Positions 2,551-45,588 of a stretch of 64,000 nt of DNA are shown here, one piece after another (the stretch's first letter is position 1; every line of letters starts with the position of its first letter). Below the pieces are notes generated by a model, which was given only the letters and a program-made list of their open reading frames with translations, made no database searches and had not been told where the DNA came from. Made by a program: the position numbers and the translations under genes. The DNA comes from Escherichia phage muut, in sequence record NC_052657.1. One strand, given 5' to 3'.

Positions 2551-2725
2551 TTTTGTTGATGTAGATATTAATTCTGACTTAACAGAAGATGAAGGTGGCG
2601 CTTTTGTGTGTTCAGATGGGGAAAAATGTTTTACTCTGATGGTAGAAACTTATGATGGTATCACAGAAATTCTGTTAACAGAGAATGAGTTAAAACAGAT
2701 GTTAGAAAAGATTGAGGAGCTTTAA
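2543..2725 (+). CDS. hypothetical acidic protein (60 aa)
   Basis: ATG with AAAGGAG RBS 24 nt inside ORF-track ORF 2519..2725. Confidence 0.45.
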   Translation: MIDFVDVDINSDLTEDEGGAFVCSDGEKCFTLMVETYDGITEILLTENELKQMLEKIEEL

Positions 2726-2727
2726 TA

Positions 2728-2874
2728 ATGGATGATGTAAGTATTTGTCCTATCTGCGGCGGCACTGGGAATTTTATTGTTAGTATGGAACAATTTATTC
2801 CTTGTTGGAATTGTAACGGCTTAGGTTTCGTTCATACAGAAGAAAAAGAAGAAGAGGAAGATAGTGGGAGTTGA
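2728..2874 (+). CDS. small zinc-ribbon protein (48 aa)
   Basis: CPICGG...CWNCNG two CxxC pairs; below the ORF-track size cut-off. Confidence 0.4.
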   Translation: MDDVSICPICGGTGNFIVSMEQFIPCWNCNGLGFVHTEEKEEEEDSGS

Positions 2875-3190
2875 TATTGCATGGCGTATGTTACAGGGTG
2901 CACCTTTTAATAAATGGGAAGAGGCTGTAGGAGAAGATCCTAGAATTGAAGAAGAATTTGATGGAGATTTTAATTGGTTCTTACAAGAAGGTCTTGATTT
3001 AAGCCGTATCTCACCTTTCTATGACGCTGATGCATCTTATTGCATATATGGGATTTATTTAGAAGGTGGCGAAGGAAGTATAGCTGTAGATCTTGAGCAA
3101 CTAAATAAGAATGCAAAAGAAGCCTACGCACAACTTCTTGAAAAATATAACATTGAAACGGAAACTATTATTTCTCAACACGTTTGGTAA
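2864..3190 (+). CDS. hypothetical protein (108 aa)
   Basis: GTG start with GAGGAA RBS; alternative ATG at 2888. Confidence 0.4.
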   Translation: MGVDIAWRMLQGAPFNKWEEAVGEDPRIEEEFDGDFNWFLQEGLDLSRISPFYDADASYCIYGIYLEGGEGSIAVDLEQLNKNAKEAYAQLLEKYNIETETIISQHVW

Positions 3191-3203
3191 GGAGGATAGT
3201 AGA

Positions 3204-3401
3204 ATGATGCTAGATCAACTGATCAATGCTCCTCGCGTAACAGTAAGTCCAAAAACATTTGCATCACTTTTAGAAGATGCTAGAGAGGTTTATAACTTTA
3301 CTGAAGAAGAGCTTCCTGTTCCTGTTAAAAAAGGTTCCAGATGGTTGTTTTATGAAGGTATTATTTTTACTGAAGGGAATAATTGGAAGGAGACTAAATG
3401 A
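3204..3401 (+). CDS. hypothetical protein (65 aa)
   Basis: ATG preceded by AAGGAGG; ORF-track 3111 start overlaps previous gene. Confidence 0.5.
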   Translation: MMLDQLINAPRVTVSPKTFASLLEDAREVYNFTEEELPVPVKKGSRWLFYEGIIFTEGNNWKETK

Positions 3402-4387
3402 AATACTTAGTAACAGGTGGTTTAGGCTTTATTGGAAGTGCGGTAGTTCGTTTCCTGGCTAAAAACACTAAGAATGATATTTACGTTATAGATAAATGGG
3501 GTTACGCTTCAGACCCTAGAAATTTATCAGAAACACCTAATGTAAAGTTTTGTCGTGTTGACTTGACAAATGCTCAGTTAACTGCTAAGATTGTGGCAGA
3601 TGTTAATCCAGATTATATAATGCATCTTGCAGCAGAAAGTCACGTAGATAATTCAATAGCATCACCGAGTGTTTTTATAAATTCAAATATTGTTGGAACA
3701 TTTAATCTTCTAGAAGCTGTTCGTTTAATGGGAGATAAATCAAATCTTAAAATGTTTCATCATATTTCAACAGATGAAGTGTATGGTGATCTGGAAGAAG
3801 GGGATTATCCGTTTACAGAACAGAATCCTTATAAGCCAAGTAGTCCATATGCTGCATCTAAGGCAGCAAGCGATCATTTGGTAAGAGCGTGGCATCGTAC
3901 TTATGGTATTCCGACAGTTATAACAAATTGTTCAAATAATTTTGGAGCGTATCATCATCCAGAAAAACTAATACCTAAAACGATAACAAATATTTTGATG
4001 CATAAACCAATCCCTGTTTATGGCAATGGTCTTCAAGTAAGAGATTGGTTATACGTTGACGATCACGCAGAAGCATTACACCTAGTAGTAACTAAAGGCA
4101 AATCTGGAGAAACATATAATATTGGGAGCAGAAACCCTAGAACTAATATTGATGTAATCTATATGATTTGTGATTATATGGATGCGGTGTATCCATCTGA
4201 AACAGATGCTTGTAGCCTCATTGAGATGGTTACAGATAGGCCTGGGCATGATTTAAGATATGAAGTGAATCCTTATAAGATTGAAAAGGAATTAGGGTGG
4301 AAAGCTAAAGGCACATTTGAAGAAAAACTTTATTCAACCATTGATTGGTATGTAGATAACAAAGAGTGGTGGGAAAATAAAGTTTAA
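3398..4387 (+). CDS. rmlB: dTDP-glucose 4,6-dehydratase
   Basis: 329 aa; N-terminal GGLGFIGS Rossmann motif, YAASK catalytic YxxxK. Confidence 0.9.
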
Positions 4388-32021: not shown

Positions 32022-32369
32022 GATAATCTCCTCTCATCGTTAGTCATCTTTCATGGCAATCATCAATCACCAACATCATACGATCAATCTTAGGGAATTA
32101 CAATCGAATTATCATAGGGGATTCCTATCAATTATTCTATATATACCTATTATTTTTAACACACCCCTTTGTACATAATATAGACAAATAAATATCTATG
32201 CCACAAAAATTTTCTGGTATACCCGATTTATTTCGACACACCCCCTTTTCATAAGCGTAAAGTCAATAATATCAATAACTTGCCGCAAAATACTGCTCGC
32301 TTGCGAGAGGTGCTTAACGCGATTTTCAGCGCCCCGCGATTTTTCCCGACCGTCCCCCTCAAATATCAA

Positions 32370-32400
32370 TGAGAATAATTATCATTTGCATTATCATTCA
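32370..32400. repeat. Fur-box-like palindrome
   Basis: GAGAATAATTATCATTTGC, 14/19 to GATAATGATAATCATTATC. Confidence 0.35.
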
Positions 32401-32554
32401 ATGACTTATAAGACTTTTGATTATTTTCTGAGCAAGAAAGGTACTACTCACAACAAAACAGATAAATTCTAAGTAAATCAATGGCTTGGCAAGTCTAAAC
32501 ATCTATATACACCTTGCCAAATGAAATGATCTGGCGTGAAATAGTGCTACCCGT

Positions 32555-32580
32555 GGAAGATAGCTGATAATGATTATCAT
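32555..32580. repeat. Fur-box-like palindrome
   Basis: GATAATGATTATCATTTGC, 16/19 to Fur consensus. Confidence 0.45.
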
Positions 32581-33107
32581 TTGCATATTTTCTATACTAT
32601 AAAACGCACTAAAAATCAAGATAATTCTGATTTATTGCGCTTTTAAGAAAGTAGGCTCAACAAATAGGCTATAACTATGCTCAACAAATAACAATAATAG
32701 TATGAAAAATCATTTATTCAGATATAAATAATTTTGCGCAATAGTAGTAATATTTTTCTTGACAAGAAAGATTTCTTTGTGTTCACATAGCGCCCCCTGG
32801 AAGGTGGCGCATTATGATCATCAATGTCATTATTCACCATGTTTATTATTGCATAGCTTATTATTTAGCTTATATTATAGCCAATGTTCTAAACACTAGC
32901 TAATAATAACGCACCGCAACAATGTAAGGGATACAATATACCATGTATATTGTTGCGCTTGCAATTGTTGCAAGCTACATAAGCACAAATAATAACTATC
33001 GGTGATGGTTATTATGTGGGGTGTGTAGTTGCGTTATTATTAGCCGCCTATGTGTCCGGCATAGGCTGCTAATGATACGCTTGCGAATTATATTTCTTGT
33101 TATAGTT

Positions 33108-33175
33108 ATTGTATGAAATGATTACCACATGAAATGGTTACTGTATGCAATGATTACTGTATGAAATGATTAGTT
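33108..33175. repeat. four tandem ~16-bp direct repeats (iteron-like)
   Basis: GTATGAAATGATTAC / CATGAAATGGTTAC / GTATGCAATGATTAC / GTATGAAATGATTAG. Confidence 0.55.
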
Positions 33176-33189
33176 AGGTAATAAATAGG

Positions 33190-33470
33190 AAGGTAAAGGT
33201 TAGATCATAAATAGATAGGATATGAATTATTTAGTAATGTTACTAACGATTTAATAGTTACTTTGTGCAATAATTCGATAGATTATAGTTATAGTTTTAA
33301 AGGTTAGATAGATTATATTTAGCTTAGTAATGATTTATATTAGTTATTGTTGTTTAATATAAGGTTATCAATGAGATAGTAACAGTAAGTTATAAATAAA
33401 GGTTAGATAATTAGTTTTAATTTAGTTAGATAACTTATTATTTTATAGGTTAGATGGTCATAAGTTAAGA
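33190..33470. repeat. dispersed AAAGGTTAGAT repeats (4-5 copies)
   Basis: Copies near 33196, 33297, 33408, 33434, 33446 in AT-rich context. Confidence 0.45.
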
Positions 33471-33545
33471 ATGATTATCATTATTGCATTATGCAGCTTA
33501 TTGCATAAATAATCAGCTATAAATAAGAATGATTATCATTTAAGA
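33465..33545. repeat. two Fur-box-like palindromes
   Basis: AGAATGATTATCATTATTG and AAATAAGAATGATTATCAT; second is near-identical to 43383-43405. Confidence 0.45.
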
Positions 33546-42173: not shown

Positions 42174-42435
42174 GTTCGTTCGCCTCTTCTGTTAGTAGTT
42201 TACATACCTTAAACATGCTTGCCGCATCTTTTGACGGTAGCCAGCCTATCCGATACACTCCAGGATCTGGATTAGTTATATCAGTTAGTTGCGCGTTGCG
42301 ATGATTAAAAATAGTGTAACCGCCGCCAGCACGGGGATAAACATTATCTTTAAACCTGATAGCGTATCTCGCCAGGTCGAACGTTGTAGCATGTTCAAAA
42401 GCGATCACATTATCAAAAACTTTTAGAAAAAACAA
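42163..42435 (-). CDS. hypothetical protein (90 aa)
   Basis: TTG start with GGGGAGG RBS. Confidence 0.45.
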   Translation of the reverse strand: MFFLKVFDNVIAFEHATTFDLARYAIRFKDNVYPRAGGGYTIFNHRNAQLTDITNPDPGVYRIGWLPSKDAASMFKVCKLLTEEANEHGA

Positions 42436-42437
42436 GA

Positions 42438-42584
42438 TTATCCTCCCCAGCGTTTAAAGCCCGTTGCACGGTTGTTTTTTAGCTCTCGTTTTAGTCTCTT
42501 GCAACGGTTTACAAGTGCAAACCGTGCCGGAGTCGTAACAGTAGCGCCGTTTTTGGTGTGAATACTCATTACATATTGTTTCAT
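42438..42584 (-). CDS. small basic protein (48 aa)
   Basis: ATG after hairpin; stop overlaps RBS of next gene. Confidence 0.4.
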   Translation of the reverse strand: MKQYVMSIHTKNGATVTTPARFALVNRCKRLKRELKNNRATGFKRWGG

Positions 42585-42604
42585 AAAGTTTTATCCTATG
42601 TAAG

Positions 42605-42656
42605 CGGGAACTATTCCCGCTTTAAGATAGCTTATCAGGTTTTAGTGCAACGTCAA
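42605..42656 (-). promoter_or_regulatory. promoter plus stem-loop cassette
   Basis: TTGACG-16-TAAGCT then GCGGGAATAGTTCCCGC. Confidence 0.5.
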
Positions 42657-42690
42657 CCGTTTTTTTAATCTTTTTTCATTTCTTTTTTGC

Positions 42691-42744
42691 TTGCTATCTA
42701 TAAAGGAAACGGCTATTATCTTTCTACCGCGCCAACCAGGGCGC
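42691..42744 (+). promoter_or_regulatory. divergent promoter plus stem-loop (plus strand)
   Basis: TTGCTA-17-TATTAT then GCGCC-AACCAG-GGCGC hairpin. Confidence 0.45.
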
Positions 42745-42766
42745 ACATCAAAGAAAGGGCGATACC

Positions 42767-43033
42767 ATGACAAATACCCCTTTACATCTCATGCACTCAT
42801 TGGGCTGGCAAGGCGGCACGGTGCACCAGGTAGCAAGCGCAACGGGCTTAAAGGTTGAAACCGTTCTCAACCTGGGCGATCATAAGGTGGAAGAAATAGA
42901 TCATTTTGATACGTTCGCAAATGGTTATCTATGGGCTTGCAGTGGCGGCGGGGAAAGCAAGATCCCGCCAGGGGCGCGGGGCGACATGTATTTTTGGTTA
43001 GGTGTCCTATCCTGGCAAGAAAACAAAAAATAA
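42767..43033 (+). CDS. hypothetical protein (88 aa)
   Basis: AAGGG RBS; lone plus-strand gene between minus blocks. Confidence 0.5.
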   Translation: MTNTPLHLMHSLGWQGGTVHQVASATGLKVETVLNLGDHKVEEIDHFDTFANGYLWACSGGGESKIPPGARGDMYFWLGVLSWQENKK

Positions 43034-43035
43034 TC

Positions 43036-43064
43036 TTGACAAGCCCAGGGATCGGGCTTATACT
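43036..43064 (+). promoter_or_regulatory. sigma70-like promoter
   Basis: TTGACA-17-TATACT. Confidence 0.5.
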
Positions 43065-43070
43065 GTTTTA

Positions 43071-43170
43071 CATACAGAAGAGGAAGCGCCACCCCCACGG
43101 CGTAAAGGCGGGGCTAACATACCAGGGCACTACTGGTTGGAAGGTTGATCGCCGGTAGCTCGTCTAAAAT
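43071..43170 (+). ncRNA. candidate small structured RNA
   Basis: GC-rich hairpin-rich ~100 nt after the promoter, with no ORF and no RBS. Confidence 0.25.
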
Positions 43171-43314
43171 AAATTTGTAAAGAAATGTAAAGATAAAAAT
43201 AATCGCTTGCTTTTGTTGTTGGTTATGCTATTCTTATTGTATGGCGAGGGGATACGGGAGCGCGAGACAAACACCACCCCTGCGCGTTATTCTCTAAATG
43301 AGAAAATTCTTATT

Positions 43315-43405
43315 TGGTAATGATTCTCATTCTCTTACTGAGAATGATTATCACTTACATAATTAAATGATAATGATTCTCATTTACAAATGAGAATGAT
43401 TATCA
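43315..43405. repeat. cluster of four Fur-box-like palindromes
   Basis: TAATGATTCTCATT, GAGAATGATTATCAC, GATAATGATTCTCAT, GAGAATGATTATCAT. Confidence 0.45.
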
Positions 43406-43430
43406 TCCGCACACCCATAAAAACACGAAA

Positions 43431-43631
43431 TTGAACTTTTCATTTTTGATTTTTCTACGGAAAAAGGCAAAAAAACTTTAAATAAACTGGGGAATTTTTA
43501 AAAAATTGAAGTTTTCATTTTCAAAATCTGGACAGAAATACATACAAAAACTTTAAATAATTTTGACCAAACTTGAACTTTTCATTTTCAAAATTTGTAG
43601 CCAAAAATCTGTAAAAACTTTAAATAATTTT
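43431..43631. repeat. three tandem ~62-67 bp direct repeats
   Basis: Each unit: TTGAA(C/G)TTTTCATTTT(C/T)(A/G)A(A/T)(A/T)T ... AAAAACTTTAAATAA. Confidence 0.55.
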
Positions 43632-43845
43632 ATCCTTTTTATAAAAATGATTTTACTGTTCTGTTATAAATAGTAGTTAAGAGATAATGTGTCTTTTAAA
43701 AGCCAGATAGCATAGTCCAACAAACAAATTAAATAATTTATTAACAGAGTACAGAATAATATTTACTCTGGATATATTATTCAGAGGGTGGATTTCCGTA
43801 CATGAAACCCACACCCCTTTTATAAAAATAAAAATTTTCAAAATA

Positions 43846-44397
43846 TCAGGAAATATCAGATTGTGTTTTTAGATAAACAGCAAGGTCTGTATGCCATTTT
43901 CCTAAAAGATTTTGTCCTTTCCAACAATCCTTGTTTTCAACATTACGATCCCACATCCCCATTTTGATACCATAAATAGAATCATAAGGGCTTGCCTCTA
44001 CGAACTCCTTATCTGCGTAAGCAATAAGTTTATTTTTGAGATCTTCATTTTGTGTGTATTTAAGATACAAACCACGTTCGACAATCTTCTCCCGTAAAGA
44101 AGTCCAGGTATCTTCATCATAATCCTTAACTAATCTACCTAGTCGCTTATAATATGCTTGTTCTTTTTCTCCTGTATATCTTAGATCTCCGGTTAAAATA
44201 GAAGATGCAATATTGTAATCATAAAACAAACATGCTTTTCTCCACATCATATATTGTTCCACACAAGTAAATTCAACATAACTTGTAATAGAATTATTAT
44301 ACTTGGGAGCTAAAGGTTCAATAAAAGATGATAGATACCAGTTGCTAAATTCATCTTTTGCCGAAAAGAAGAACACATACTTATCAGTAATCCGCAT
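43846..44397 (-). CDS. NADAR (YbiA-like) domain protein
   Basis: FSNW, EQYMMWRKACLF, KYTQNEDLKNKL...EASPYDSIYGIKMG, GQNLLGK segments align with the YbiA/NADAR fold. Confidence 0.7.
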   Translation of the reverse strand: MRITDKYVFFFSAKDEFSNWYLSSFIEPLAPKYNNSITSYVEFTCVEQYMMWRKACLFYDYNIASSILTGDLRYTGEKEQAYYKRLGRLVKDYDEDTWTSLREKIVERGLYLKYTQNEDLKNKLIAYADKEFVEASPYDSIYGIKMGMWDRNVENKDCWKGQNLLGKWHTDLAVYLKTQSDIS

Positions 44398-45588
44398 TTA
44401 CACCTCCTTACTGTATACTAATTTGCCACCATATTGTGTAATAATTTTTTGAAGATTTTCCAAATCAGAAACACTTACTGTTTCTGTATAACCATCTTTC
44501 AACTCTCTTTTCGTTAAAATACCAGTTTTTAATTTTTTCTTTATAGCTCTTTCAGCAGCCTTACATTGTTTCACTGTGCTAAAATCATATAAACAAATAC
44601 GCTCCATAAAAAACAGATTACGGCTATTTTGAATGTTTAATCGCCTATCACTATCTTTAGCTATACCAAACTTAAGAGCAACTATAATATTATCATCCTT
44701 AACAATATTAATATATAACTGCTGCTGACTATGACCAGCACACATAGGACAACCTCGACAGCGGCTTAATAAATTATGAGCACTCCCTATCTGCTCACCA
44801 TGCACAAGACAAAGATATTTAAACTTACCTATAGAAGAGGGTTTGGTAATCCAATCTACCCAGACATACCCTTTCCCTTCTACTTCCTTTTTTACCCTAT
44901 AGGTGATCTGGTCTTCTGTATACTGATAGTTCCCACAACGACACGGAATGTACCCTCGTTTAAGGTTATTTCCTTCAGAGTAAAATTTACCATCACAAAC
45001 ACCTGCTTGAACATATTCATCATGAGAGCAAACAGGACATTCAACCATCCAGATACTATGCCTGCGTCCTTTACTCCGTGTTCCTGTGTTAGTGAAGATA
45101 GTGCCTTCCTTAAATTTCCCTGTAGAAAAGAAATCTGCAATATGTTGATCGTCGGGCATTGTTAGTGCCTTCCTTGTATTCTCCCCCCTACATTGTGGAC
45201 AACCTCGACCGCCTTTAAATTGATGAATTGCTGTACTTTGCCATCTATTCCCACAATGGCACAACAAATCAAGTTTTGTTTTATTCCCTTTCCATTCTCC
45301 AACGTACCCTAACACCTGATACCCCTTCTTCTGTGCTATCTCTTCCAAGATCGGCAATTCTGTTTCCCATGTTAACGGCTTCTTACCAGAACAGATAGGA
45401 CAACTGTTGCCGCGCTTGAAATTACTAATACTACAAGTCTTCCATTCATGTTCCTGCCTACAGCGTAGAATCATTTTCGTATCACAACCTATAAACGGTT
45501 CAACATATCCTAGGATCTCAATCCCTTTATTATTCGCAATAGGTTGACACTCTTCTTTATATTGTTCCCATGATTTTGGTGCTGCCAT
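44398..45588 (-). CDS. zinc-ribbon repeat protein with C-terminal T5orf172/GIY-YIG-like domain
   Basis: Repeated C..C...CP.C modules; C-terminal KFGIAKDSDRR...DGYTE segment similar to 49258..50256. Confidence 0.4.
   Translation of the reverse strand: MAAPKSWEQYKEECQPIANNKGIEILGYVEPFIGCDTKMILRCRQEHEWKTCSISNFKRGNSCPICSGKKPLTWETELPILEEIAQKKGYQVLGYVGEWKGNKTKLDLLCHCGNRWQSTAIHQFKGGRGCPQCRGENTRKALTMPDDQHIADFFSTGKFKEGTIFTNTGTRSKGRRHSIWMVECPVCSHDEYVQAGVCDGKFYSEGNNLKRGYIPCRCGNYQYTEDQITYRVKKEVEGKGYVWVDWITKPSSIGKFKYLCLVHGEQIGSAHNLLSRCRGCPMCAGHSQQQLYINIVKDDNIIVALKFGIAKDSDRRLNIQNSRNLFFMERICLYDFSTVKQCKAAERAIKKKLKTGILTKRELKDGYTETVSVSDLENLQKIITQYGGKLVYSKEV

Follow-up and report, generated by a model that had tools for sequence, protein, structure and literature searches.

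Two candidate structured non-coding RNAs behind conserved promoters in Escherichia phage muut and related enterobacterial myoviruses

Phage HK022 encodes putL and putR, which are structured, protein-independent and untranslated antitermination RNAs located directly after the early promoters, with two copies per genome. The put elements consist of two stem-loops and are followed by early genes and terminators. Transcription-activated origins include the T7 primary origin with promoters 1.1A and 1.1B, T4 oriF and oriG, the T4 R-loop origins, and ColE1 with its RNA II. In the Fur-regulated small RNAs (sRNAs) RyhB and PrrF, the Fur box lies on the promoter. Pseudo-ToxI of phage phiTE is a phage-encoded small RNA (PMC3475682), and another phage sRNA is the subject of a preprint entitled "Phage-encoded small RNA hijacks host replication machinery" (bioRxiv 10.1101/2024.10.31.621285). 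Here, a DNA stretch of 64,000 nt from Escherichia phage muut (NC_052657.1; the window) was analysed for two predicted non-coding RNAs (ncRNAs) on the + strand: unit 1, of about 95 nt, behind a promoter designated as P1, and unit 2, of about 50 nt, behind a promoter designated as P2.

An earlier note on this DNA had proposed that an open reading frame (ORF)-free, structured transcript lies behind each promoter as a candidate small RNA. Comparison among phages supported this proposal by core identity, covarying helices, an excess of G.U pairs and frame-breaking indels; that the transcripts are small is a prediction. Both units were conserved, stood in a constant geometry to their promoters, lacked coding potential, and contained covarying helices assignable to one strand. 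Units 1 and 2 are probably new regulatory RNAs. The favoured reading, with a rough probability of 0.55, is that they are two conserved, structured ncRNAs that would be transcribed early by the host sigma-70 RNA polymerase and would act as stand-alone RNAs binding a host or phage factor.

A megablast search with 42400-44000 matched 138 phage records, of which 53 had at least 80% query coverage at no more than 97% identity. These relatives were all phi92-like myoviruses (Justusliebigvirus and Phapecoctavirus; subfamily Stephanstirmvirinae), and the source phage of the window is, from its sequence, a phi92-like myovirus of the genus Justusliebigvirus. A sensitive blastn search with 43000-43330 matched 233 phage records. 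In close relatives the entire query aligned; in the distant genera (Mydovirus, Certrevirus, Seunavirus, and unclassified Vequintavirinae), whose flanks failed to align, only the core 43067-43193 (query 68-194) aligned, at about 84% identity. The hosts of these distant phages were Klebsiella, Proteus, Cronobacter, Pectobacterium, and Enterobacter. In most records of relatives nothing was annotated at the core stretch, and in the others spurious small ORFs were annotated across the locus.

When the loci were read one by one, the module showed a constant order: a small + strand ORF, P1, unit 1, a tandem TGTAAAGA motif, P2, unit 2, Fur-box-like palindromes (two to four per locus), and AT-rich repeats. 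In relatives, a GC hairpin was located in or around the P1 spacer. This synteny spanned the Stephanstirmvirinae and most Vequintavirinae. The W70 version of the module matched 348 records; with this version the rV5-like phages matched only at the 3' end of unit 2 and the Fur box. Phage phiTE (locus L016), a relative of the window phage, carried both unit 1 and unit 2.

No blastn match to the module was found among 5,426 complete E. coli genomes, and a host origin or host mimicry of the module was rejected on this result. A pattern scan of a collection of species-representative genomes gave four exact matches, with the module itself only in a 4-kb phage-like contig of a metagenome-assembled genome (L096). 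A scan of viral contigs with GGAGACAANCACCGG gave chance matches only, and a Fur-like box was located downstream in 0 of 118. Scans with two other 15-mers also gave mostly chance matches, but recovered six additional true variants (L056 from phage 4MG, L110, L124, L125, L144, and L148).

Unit 1 was aligned in 27 distinct sequences (alignment A2), from which a covariance model was built. The model matched the window once, at 43065-43169 (106.8 bits), and was used for a larger alignment of 36 copies in 35 distinct rows (A4). The first helix, S1, was unchanged in all copies but two divergent ones, in which the first pair differed. The S1 loop and a downstream strand are predicted to form a classical H-type pseudoknot. 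The pairing strands of the 36 copies were CCCC/GGGG in 28, CCAA/UUGG in four, CUCC/GGGG in 4MG, CCAG/CUGG in L124, and CCA/UGG and CCC/GGG in one each; in A2, the pair at columns 33-47 was C-G in 23 sequences and A-U in four. In all 36 copies stem 2 had 3-4 bp, and loop 3 was A-rich and 6-7 nt long.

The next hairpin of unit 1, P3, varied freely and kept its pairing. One pair of P3 was A-U in 12 and G-C in 12 of the 27 sequences, with switches within and between genera, and a second pair occurred as A-U, C-G, U-A, and G.U. In the 36-copy alignment, the pair equivalent to 43119-43138 was A-U in 19 and G-C in 13, and other pairs also changed on both sides. In L125, pEa56 and phages of the KP12 type, P3 was replaced by unrelated sequence that still folded at the same place.

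Structure prediction with covariation from homologous regions, the check suggested in the earlier note, gave a covariation score of 0.140 for unit 1, compared with 0.050 ± 0.009 in shuffled alignments (reached by 0 of 500) and at most 0.058 with slid partners. The result also held on the 36-sequence alignment. Over the whole structure, 90.8% of the cells paired, compared with 24-47% with slid partners. RNAalifold on the raw MAFFT alignment missed P3, since the loops were misaligned there, and proposed GGC/GCU pairs; these were rejected (GGC is absent in L148 and L144). Also rejected was a closing stem in which the purine-rich 5' leader of unit 1 would pair with its 3' tail, as by eye this pairing was not consistently possible across the sequences.

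Unit 1 ends in a conserved 3' segment. A candidate helix GGGCUA/UAGCUC, which joins this segment with 43111-43116, was 93% paired, with a near-invariant G.U pair and one-sided changes only. The 3' segment could pair in this helix; alternatively, its CGCCG could act as a competitor for GGCG, one of the two strands of S1.

The earlier note had also pointed to a second, similar unit at 43207-43290. This unit proved to be real and conserved, with the TTGCTT-16-TATTCT hexamers present and with covariation in its stem. In an alignment of 22 sequences (A3), unit 2 started 7 nt past the -10 box as AUGGCG or AUAGCG and paired with CGYYAU about 45 nt further on. The closing stem was paired in 95.5% of the cells; the pair at columns 4-50 was G-C in eight, A-U in six, and G.U in five sequences, and in phage Kashira the innermost pair was changed to A-U. 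The stem was recovered independently by RNAalifold. In the window type, the inner helices were GGGG/CCCC or AGG/CCU plus CGG/CCG; those of the BIS47/CR3 type were CCGG/CCGG. Near the tip, an A/C-rich motif was conserved. The reverse complement of this motif, as a possible target, was found in the window only at the site of the motif itself.

The closing stem of unit 2 contained 27 G.U cells and five A.C or C.A cells; therefore, the structure was assigned to the + strand RNA. This strand-specific excess bears on the reading of the locus as a purely DNA-level regulatory region, in which the promoters and protein sites, including a Fur-repressed leftward promoter, would act and the RNA would be incidental. 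S1, AUCGCCGG, the TGTAAAGA repeats and the Fur boxes, all conserved without covariation, are consistent with this reading, as are minus-strand promoter-like hexamers on the Fur boxes. However, P3, the pseudoknot and the stem of unit 2 all retained their pairing through compensatory changes, and P3 was swapped for unrelated hairpins at the same place. The DNA-level reading is contradicted by the covariation and was considered very improbable.

Small protein genes were considered as the product of the locus, since three ORFs exist in the window (42931-43158, 75 aa; 43002-43148, 48 aa; and a leaderless ORF of 18 aa) and unit 2 opens with an AUG at its predicted +1 (43241). The two larger ORFs traverse the promoter, and indels of 1-2 nt among close relatives broke both frames. 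Between fixed anchors the segment measured 105, 104, 106, 102, and 103 nt in near-identical phages, and the length differences of unit 1 came from a C-run of 4 or 5 and from hairpin loops of unequal length. The view of the earlier note that ORF 42931-43158 was probably spurious was thus borne out by the broken frame, and the roughly 100 nt after P1 (43070-43165), described there as ORF-free, indeed had no conserved ORF. The AUG of unit 2 opens an 18-codon frame in the window; it was AUA in 9 and ACG in 2 of the 22 sequences, that is, lost in 11, and the changing base covaried with its pairing partner. In PVP-SE1 the frame shifted past six codons. The 18-codon frame is judged not to be a gene, and the coding reading as a whole, contradicted by the indels, is barely credible.

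The promoter placed at 43036-43064 by the earlier note was present as claimed, with a hexamer score of 11/12. For Certrevirus, a related genus, the published early-promoter consensus is AAAA-N4-TGTTGAC-N17-TATAAT (PMC7344957). P1 with its A-rich upstream tract was the best match in the window, with one mismatch, to this consensus in the form AAAA-N4-TnTTGACA-N17-TATAAT; eight sites of this kind were found in the window, compared with 1.5 expected. Promoter-like hexamers in general were not enriched in the 5-kb stretch around P1 (18 found, 14.4 expected). Sequence alone is weak evidence here, and the P1 call therefore rests on conservation. Every true homologue had TTGACA, TTGCAA or TTGACG, a spacer of 17-18 nt, and TATACT, TATATT, CATAAT or TATAGT, and the conserved pair ended 19-22 nt ahead of the first RNA helix. 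Both P1 and P2 were conserved at a fixed distance from the RNA helices.

The hairpin in the P1 spacer is terminator-like with respect to the upstream ORF 42767-43033. Its arms varied in relatives and by eye remained complementary (GCCCC/GGGGC in KP12, GGCCCC/GGGGCC in W70). The tandem TGTAAAGA motif occurred once in the window, was kept across both subfamilies, and may be the binding site of some regulator. Elsewhere in the window, at 32759-32830, a TTGACA with a spacer hairpin was followed by CACATAGCGCC..GGAAGGTGGCGC and a hydrophobic ORF of 29 codons (ATG near 32815); this stretch and unit 1 have the string GGAAGGUGG in common.

Table 1. Coordinates of the predicted features of the locus in the 64,000-nt window
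Feature	Coordinates	Strand	Remarks
Small ORF, 88 aa (phrog_19316, function unknown)	42767..43033	+	Located ahead of the module in all relatives; gives context and does not belong to the RNAs
Promoter P1	43036..43064	+	TTGACA (43036-43041), 17 nt, TATACT (43059-43064); A-rich tract 43026-43035
GC hairpin in P1 spacer	43041..43059	+	AAGCCC/GGGCTT, then U-rich stretch; overlaps promoter; -8.8 kcal/mol, z -1.2
Unit 1 RNA	~43070..43165	+	5' end predicted 6-8 nt past the -10 box; 3' end putative
S1 hairpin	43087..43102	+	CGCC 43087-43090 with GGCG 43099-43102 (4 bp); invariant (exceptions in text)
H-type pseudoknot	43087..43113	+	S1 plus loop C-run 43092-43096 with GGGG 43110-43113; A-rich loop 3 43103-43109
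Variable hairpin P3	43118..43139	+	C43118-G43139, A43119-U43138, bulged U43120, 43121-43125 with 43133-43137; covariation
Conserved 3' segment	43140..43162	+	GAAGGUUGAUCGCCGGUAGCUCG (GAAGGU.GAUCGCCGGUAGCUCG); AUCGCCGG nearly invariant
Tandem TGTAAAGA-N3-TGTAAAGA	43175..43193	+	One helical turn apart, just 5' of the P2 -35 box; conserved as DNA sequence
Promoter P2	43207..43234	+	TTGCTT (43207-43212), 16 nt, TATTCT (43229-43234); homologous to TTGCAA/TTGATC-16/17-TATATT/TATTAT in relatives
Unit 2 RNA	43241..43290	+	Irregular hairpin of ~50 nt; AUGGCG 43241-43246 with CGUUAU 43285-43290; stem begins at predicted +1
A/C-rich motif GAGACAAACACC (GAGACAAnCACC)	43264..43275	+	Near unit 2 tip; conserved; also in both rV5 unit-2-like copies
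Four Fur-box-like palindromes	43316..43407		Directly 3' of unit 2; position kept in all relatives including rV5
Three direct repeats of ~63 nt	43427..43631		Spacing 75 and 67 nt; AAAAACTTTAAATAA at the end of each; AT-rich DNA faced by P1 and P2

The locus lies in an early-gene region with minus-strand genes, and the RNA module is located inside a short + strand island, which begins with the 88-aa ORF and continues for about 800 nt without a conserved ORF (Table 1). The small + strand coding sequence was syntenic in alia, EmilieFrey, BIS47, PVP-SE1, GAP31, KP12, Mydo, and W70. Comparison of 42584-42767 with 2685-3939 of alia (L001) showed that the window is without about 1.07 kb that relatives carry, with the leftward genes on one side and the small + strand ORF on the other; in alia, the minus-strand genes alia_105 and alia_106 (annotated 'membrane protein') are located in this extra segment. 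On the other side, the gene at 44398-45588 (minus strand) is probably a mobile endonuclease-like gene adjoining the NADAR gene 43846-44397. Its product of 396 aa has a treble-clef zinc finger as well as three CapR-homology repeats, and weakly matches T5orf172 (PHROG 'endonuclease').

No + strand terminator was called by the scan between unit 1 and the convergent NADAR gene (ending at 43846), and no conserved + strand ORF was found downstream of the units in the window. The + strand ORFs annotated downstream in W70, A5-4 and rV5 were rejected as candidates; they are repeat-derived and have no homologue in the window. These results bear on a second reading, in which the units would be cis-acting leader RNAs that modify their own polymerase or switch conformation and so control transcription into the Fur-box and repeat region, as a put-like antiterminator, an attenuator or a riboswitch-like element. 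The position of each unit immediately 3' of its own promoter fits this reading. So do the exclusive pairings of unit 1 (pseudoknot or GGGCUA/UAGCUC; S1 or the invariant CGCCG), the unit 2 hairpin followed by UAUUCU as a possible weak terminator, and the 600 nt downstream without a called terminator. However, a conserved + strand gene for such leaders to regulate was not found downstream, the annotated ORFs of W70, A5-4 and rV5 being repeat-derived, and no Rfam riboswitch or leader family matched even at E up to 10. The leader reading, one of the two main rivals, was considered doubtful.

The E. coli Fur consensus is GATAATGATAATCATTATC. The four palindromes directly downstream of unit 2 matched this consensus or its TGAGAATnATTCTCA form, and the window contained six matches to GATAATGATAATCATTATC with at most three mismatches, compared with 0.02 expected. 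Other Fur-like sites were located at 32368-32386, 32566-32584, 33467-33485, and 33522-33540, in a second ORF-free region. Across phages, the Fur-box-like sites kept their consensus instead of covarying, and for this reason they look like protein-binding DNA. Minus-strand promoter-like hexamers overlap the palindromes, and a Fur-repressed leftward promoter is possible.

Beyond the palindromes, the DNA is AT-rich (GC 0.326 for 43001-44000) and carries the direct repeats; in W70 and rV5, repeats on a related GAAAAyGAAAA theme occupied the corresponding position. In a third reading, replication would originate in the island, or the island would have another cis-acting function as DNA; P1 and P2 would open or prime the repeats, and any RNA structure would serve primer formation. 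Consistent with this are the two tandem promoters facing AT-rich DNA with three repeats of about 63 nt, the GAAAAyGAAAA-theme repeats that also trail the module in W70 and rV5, host-factor-like (Fur) sites between promoters and repeats, and an island orientation opposed to the surrounding minus-strand genes. However, a compensated pseudoknot and a conserved loop motif exceed the needs of transcriptional activation, and the cumulative GC skew had no extremum at 43 kb. The region 32030-33530, which is larger, has denser short repeats and has its own Fur boxes, is at least an equal origin candidate. An origin function of the island, the other main rival, was thought unlikely. Both the leader and the origin readings draw on the lack of terminators and on the direction of the promoters into the Fur boxes and repeats.

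The second ORF-free region, 32030-33530, spans about 1.5 kb of low GC with its own Fur-like boxes. Its short repeats were ATGAAATGATTAC, present about four times near 33113-33170, and AGGTTAGAT, present about five times at 33198-33450. This region may itself be a replication origin or other cis-acting site.

The rV5-like phages showed a reduced form of the module. In the syntenic region of an rV5-like Vequintavirus, unit 1 was absent (best score 8 bits). At about 1295-1545 of rV5_ev168 (L211) two promoters stood in tandem, and behind each came a unit-2-like hairpin and then, directly, a Fur-box-like palindrome; the hairpins contained ...GGGGGAGACAACCACCGGGG... and ...GGGAGACAAUCACCGGG.... As rV5 keeps two such promoter, hairpin and Fur-box modules without unit 1, the most widely conserved unit is the promoter, the GAGACAAnCACC hairpin, and the Fur box. 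Unit 1 is accordingly placed, on the phages compared, as an addition common to the Stephanstirmvirinae and the other Vequintavirinae genera.

In Raoultella phage Ro1 (L019; minus strand 7135-6163), an HNH-like endonuclease ORF interrupted the 3' part of unit 1, with its insertion point after ...GGATCGC|TGGTAC. Past the insertion, a second complete promoter and a unit 1 of the other (CCAA/UUGG) variant were present. An arrangement of the Ro1 type may account for the differing unit 1 variants in near-identical phages such as BIS47 and KP12.

A search of the whole window against Rfam 15 at gathering thresholds gave no match. With E up to 10 on 42900-43900, nothing matched within 43036-43300, and no riboswitch or leader family was found. 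The sole PrrF match was at chance level (17 bits, compared with a gathering score of 90) and was located on the minus strand inside the palindromes. ARAGORN found no tRNA or tmRNA gene in the window, and with no Rfam match this identity was rejected. The GGGCUA/UAGCUC helix with its near-invariant G.U pair recalls a tRNA acceptor with a G3.U70-type wobble, but a G.G pair stands ahead of it, a CCA end is lacking, and the pseudoknot is in competition with it; this was taken as a resemblance only. Likenesses seen by eye to an HDV-like or pistol-like topology, a type I-E CRISPR repeat, SRP RNA helix 8, the tRNA-Ala acceptor, and CsrA GGA sites were rejected; none agreed with the variants, and none was backed by a tool. 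The literature searched contained no description of the unit 1 or unit 2 RNAs, and the LL12 host-factor screen did not mention fur, hfq, rnc or csrA.

Several results weigh against stand-alone RNAs. Unit 1 folds at -27.9 kcal/mol, compared with -28.0 ± 3.3 in shuffled sequences (z = +0.04), and unit 2 folds no better than its shuffles (z = +0.38). The hairpin-forming sequence reported in the earlier note thus held for helices that covary across phages, but not for stability above shuffled sequence; thermodynamic stability was dropped as evidence, and because the folding energy equals that of shuffled sequence, the case for the RNAs rests on the comparison of phages. Invariant helices of the S1 type give no covariation signal. 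The pseudoknot variants may come from few evolutionary events, and recombination could shift both strands together. The GGGCUA/UAGCUC helix and the pseudoknot share G residues and are mutually exclusive. The inner structure of unit 2 was unlike between subtypes, and a single common inner fold could not be derived. The P2 hexamers matched the consensus at only 7/12 positions in the window by our count, compared with 9/12 in relatives. The + strand terminator scan found none after unit 1 or unit 2, unlike typical trans-acting sRNAs, and unit 2 is trailed only by a weak U-rich tail, UAUUCU. The direction of P1 and P2 into the AT-rich repeats suits a cis role equally well.

Each unit had its own conserved promoter, no conserved frame, and a covarying secondary structure, as a stand-alone small RNA gene does; a 3' end defined by an intrinsic terminator was not found in the terminator scan. 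Stand-alone, factor-binding RNAs were favoured because of the core pattern of unit 1 and the invariant A/C-rich motif on the variable stem of unit 2. For unit 1, binding of a ligand or protein was favoured because an invariant pseudoknot core stands beside a freely varying hairpin, a pattern that antisense regulators do not have.

We infer that both units are transcribed early and function as RNA in their own right. The host sigma-70 RNA polymerase would transcribe both early in infection. The P1 transcript would start at about 43070-43072, and its first 95 nt would form the H-type pseudoknot, the variable hairpin and the conserved 3' segment. The P2 transcript would start at about 43241 and fold into an irregular hairpin of about 50 nt, with a closing stem from +1 and the invariant GAGACAAACACC near the tip. 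Unit 1 would bind a protein or small ligand, and the invariant motif of unit 2 would be recognised by a protein or by a complementary RNA. Unstopped transcripts would continue into the Fur boxes and repeats. More speculatively, unit 1 would be a new class of compact pseudoknot RNA (an aptamer, catalytic or protein-trapping fold), and together with unit 2 and the Fur boxes would form an iron-linked RNA switch of virulent enterobacterial phages, acting early, e.g., by gating transcription into the repeats or their firing; this extension is tentative and rather improbable as a whole.

In work on therapy and biocontrol, phi92-like, PVP-SE1-like and related myoviruses rank among the most frequent isolates. 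Very few ncRNAs are known from virulent phages, and the two RNAs, if functional, would be two further, new families; a pair of early, strongly conserved structured RNAs would also be a concrete starting point for the study of host takeover. Their constant association with Fur-type boxes leads to the testable idea that lytic phages sense the iron status of the host. With the covariance model and the coordinates, immediate annotation is possible in several hundred genomes.

Compared with the known systems, unit 1 shares with the preQ1-I and SAM-II aptamers a short GC stem, a loop pairing 6-7 nt downstream across an A-rich third loop, and a sequence-invariant core of about 30 nt with a variable periphery. 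In contrast to these aptamers, unit 1 had no Rfam match (E up to 10), downstream ORF, recognisable expression platform or indicated ligand. Unit 1 is like the small H-type aptamers in architecture; with no model match and no regulated gene, it was not assigned to them.

Like the HK022 put elements, units 1 and 2 appear directly after promoters of the early type, number two per genome, and are untranslated; here, however, the units are dissimilar, one of them has a predicted pseudoknot, and that strand carries no genes behind them. Like the T7 and T4 origins, the locus has tandem promoters directed into an AT-rich, repeat-bearing, ORF-free stretch, but those origins do without a conserved pseudoknotted RNA, and an origin role here would be by analogy. 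With RyhB and PrrF the locus shares a short non-coding transcript, predicted here, that is linked to high-scoring Fur boxes; here, the boxes are located downstream, at +75 to +167 relative to the start of unit 2 and clear of the promoter, which sets the locus apart from that group.

Pseudo-ToxI, a lead given by the relative phiTE, was rejected as an identity; it belongs to a different locus, and in L016 of phiTE no match to tandem 36-nt ToxI-like repeats was found. Units 1 and 2 showed no relation in sequence or structure to any described phage sRNA. With pseudo-ToxI and the phage sRNA of the 2024 preprint, the units have in common that they are phage-carried ncRNAs predicted to be expressed from their own promoters. 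Units 1 and 2 are thus put forward, from the comparisons above, as two new families of a known general kind, the phage-encoded structured ncRNA.

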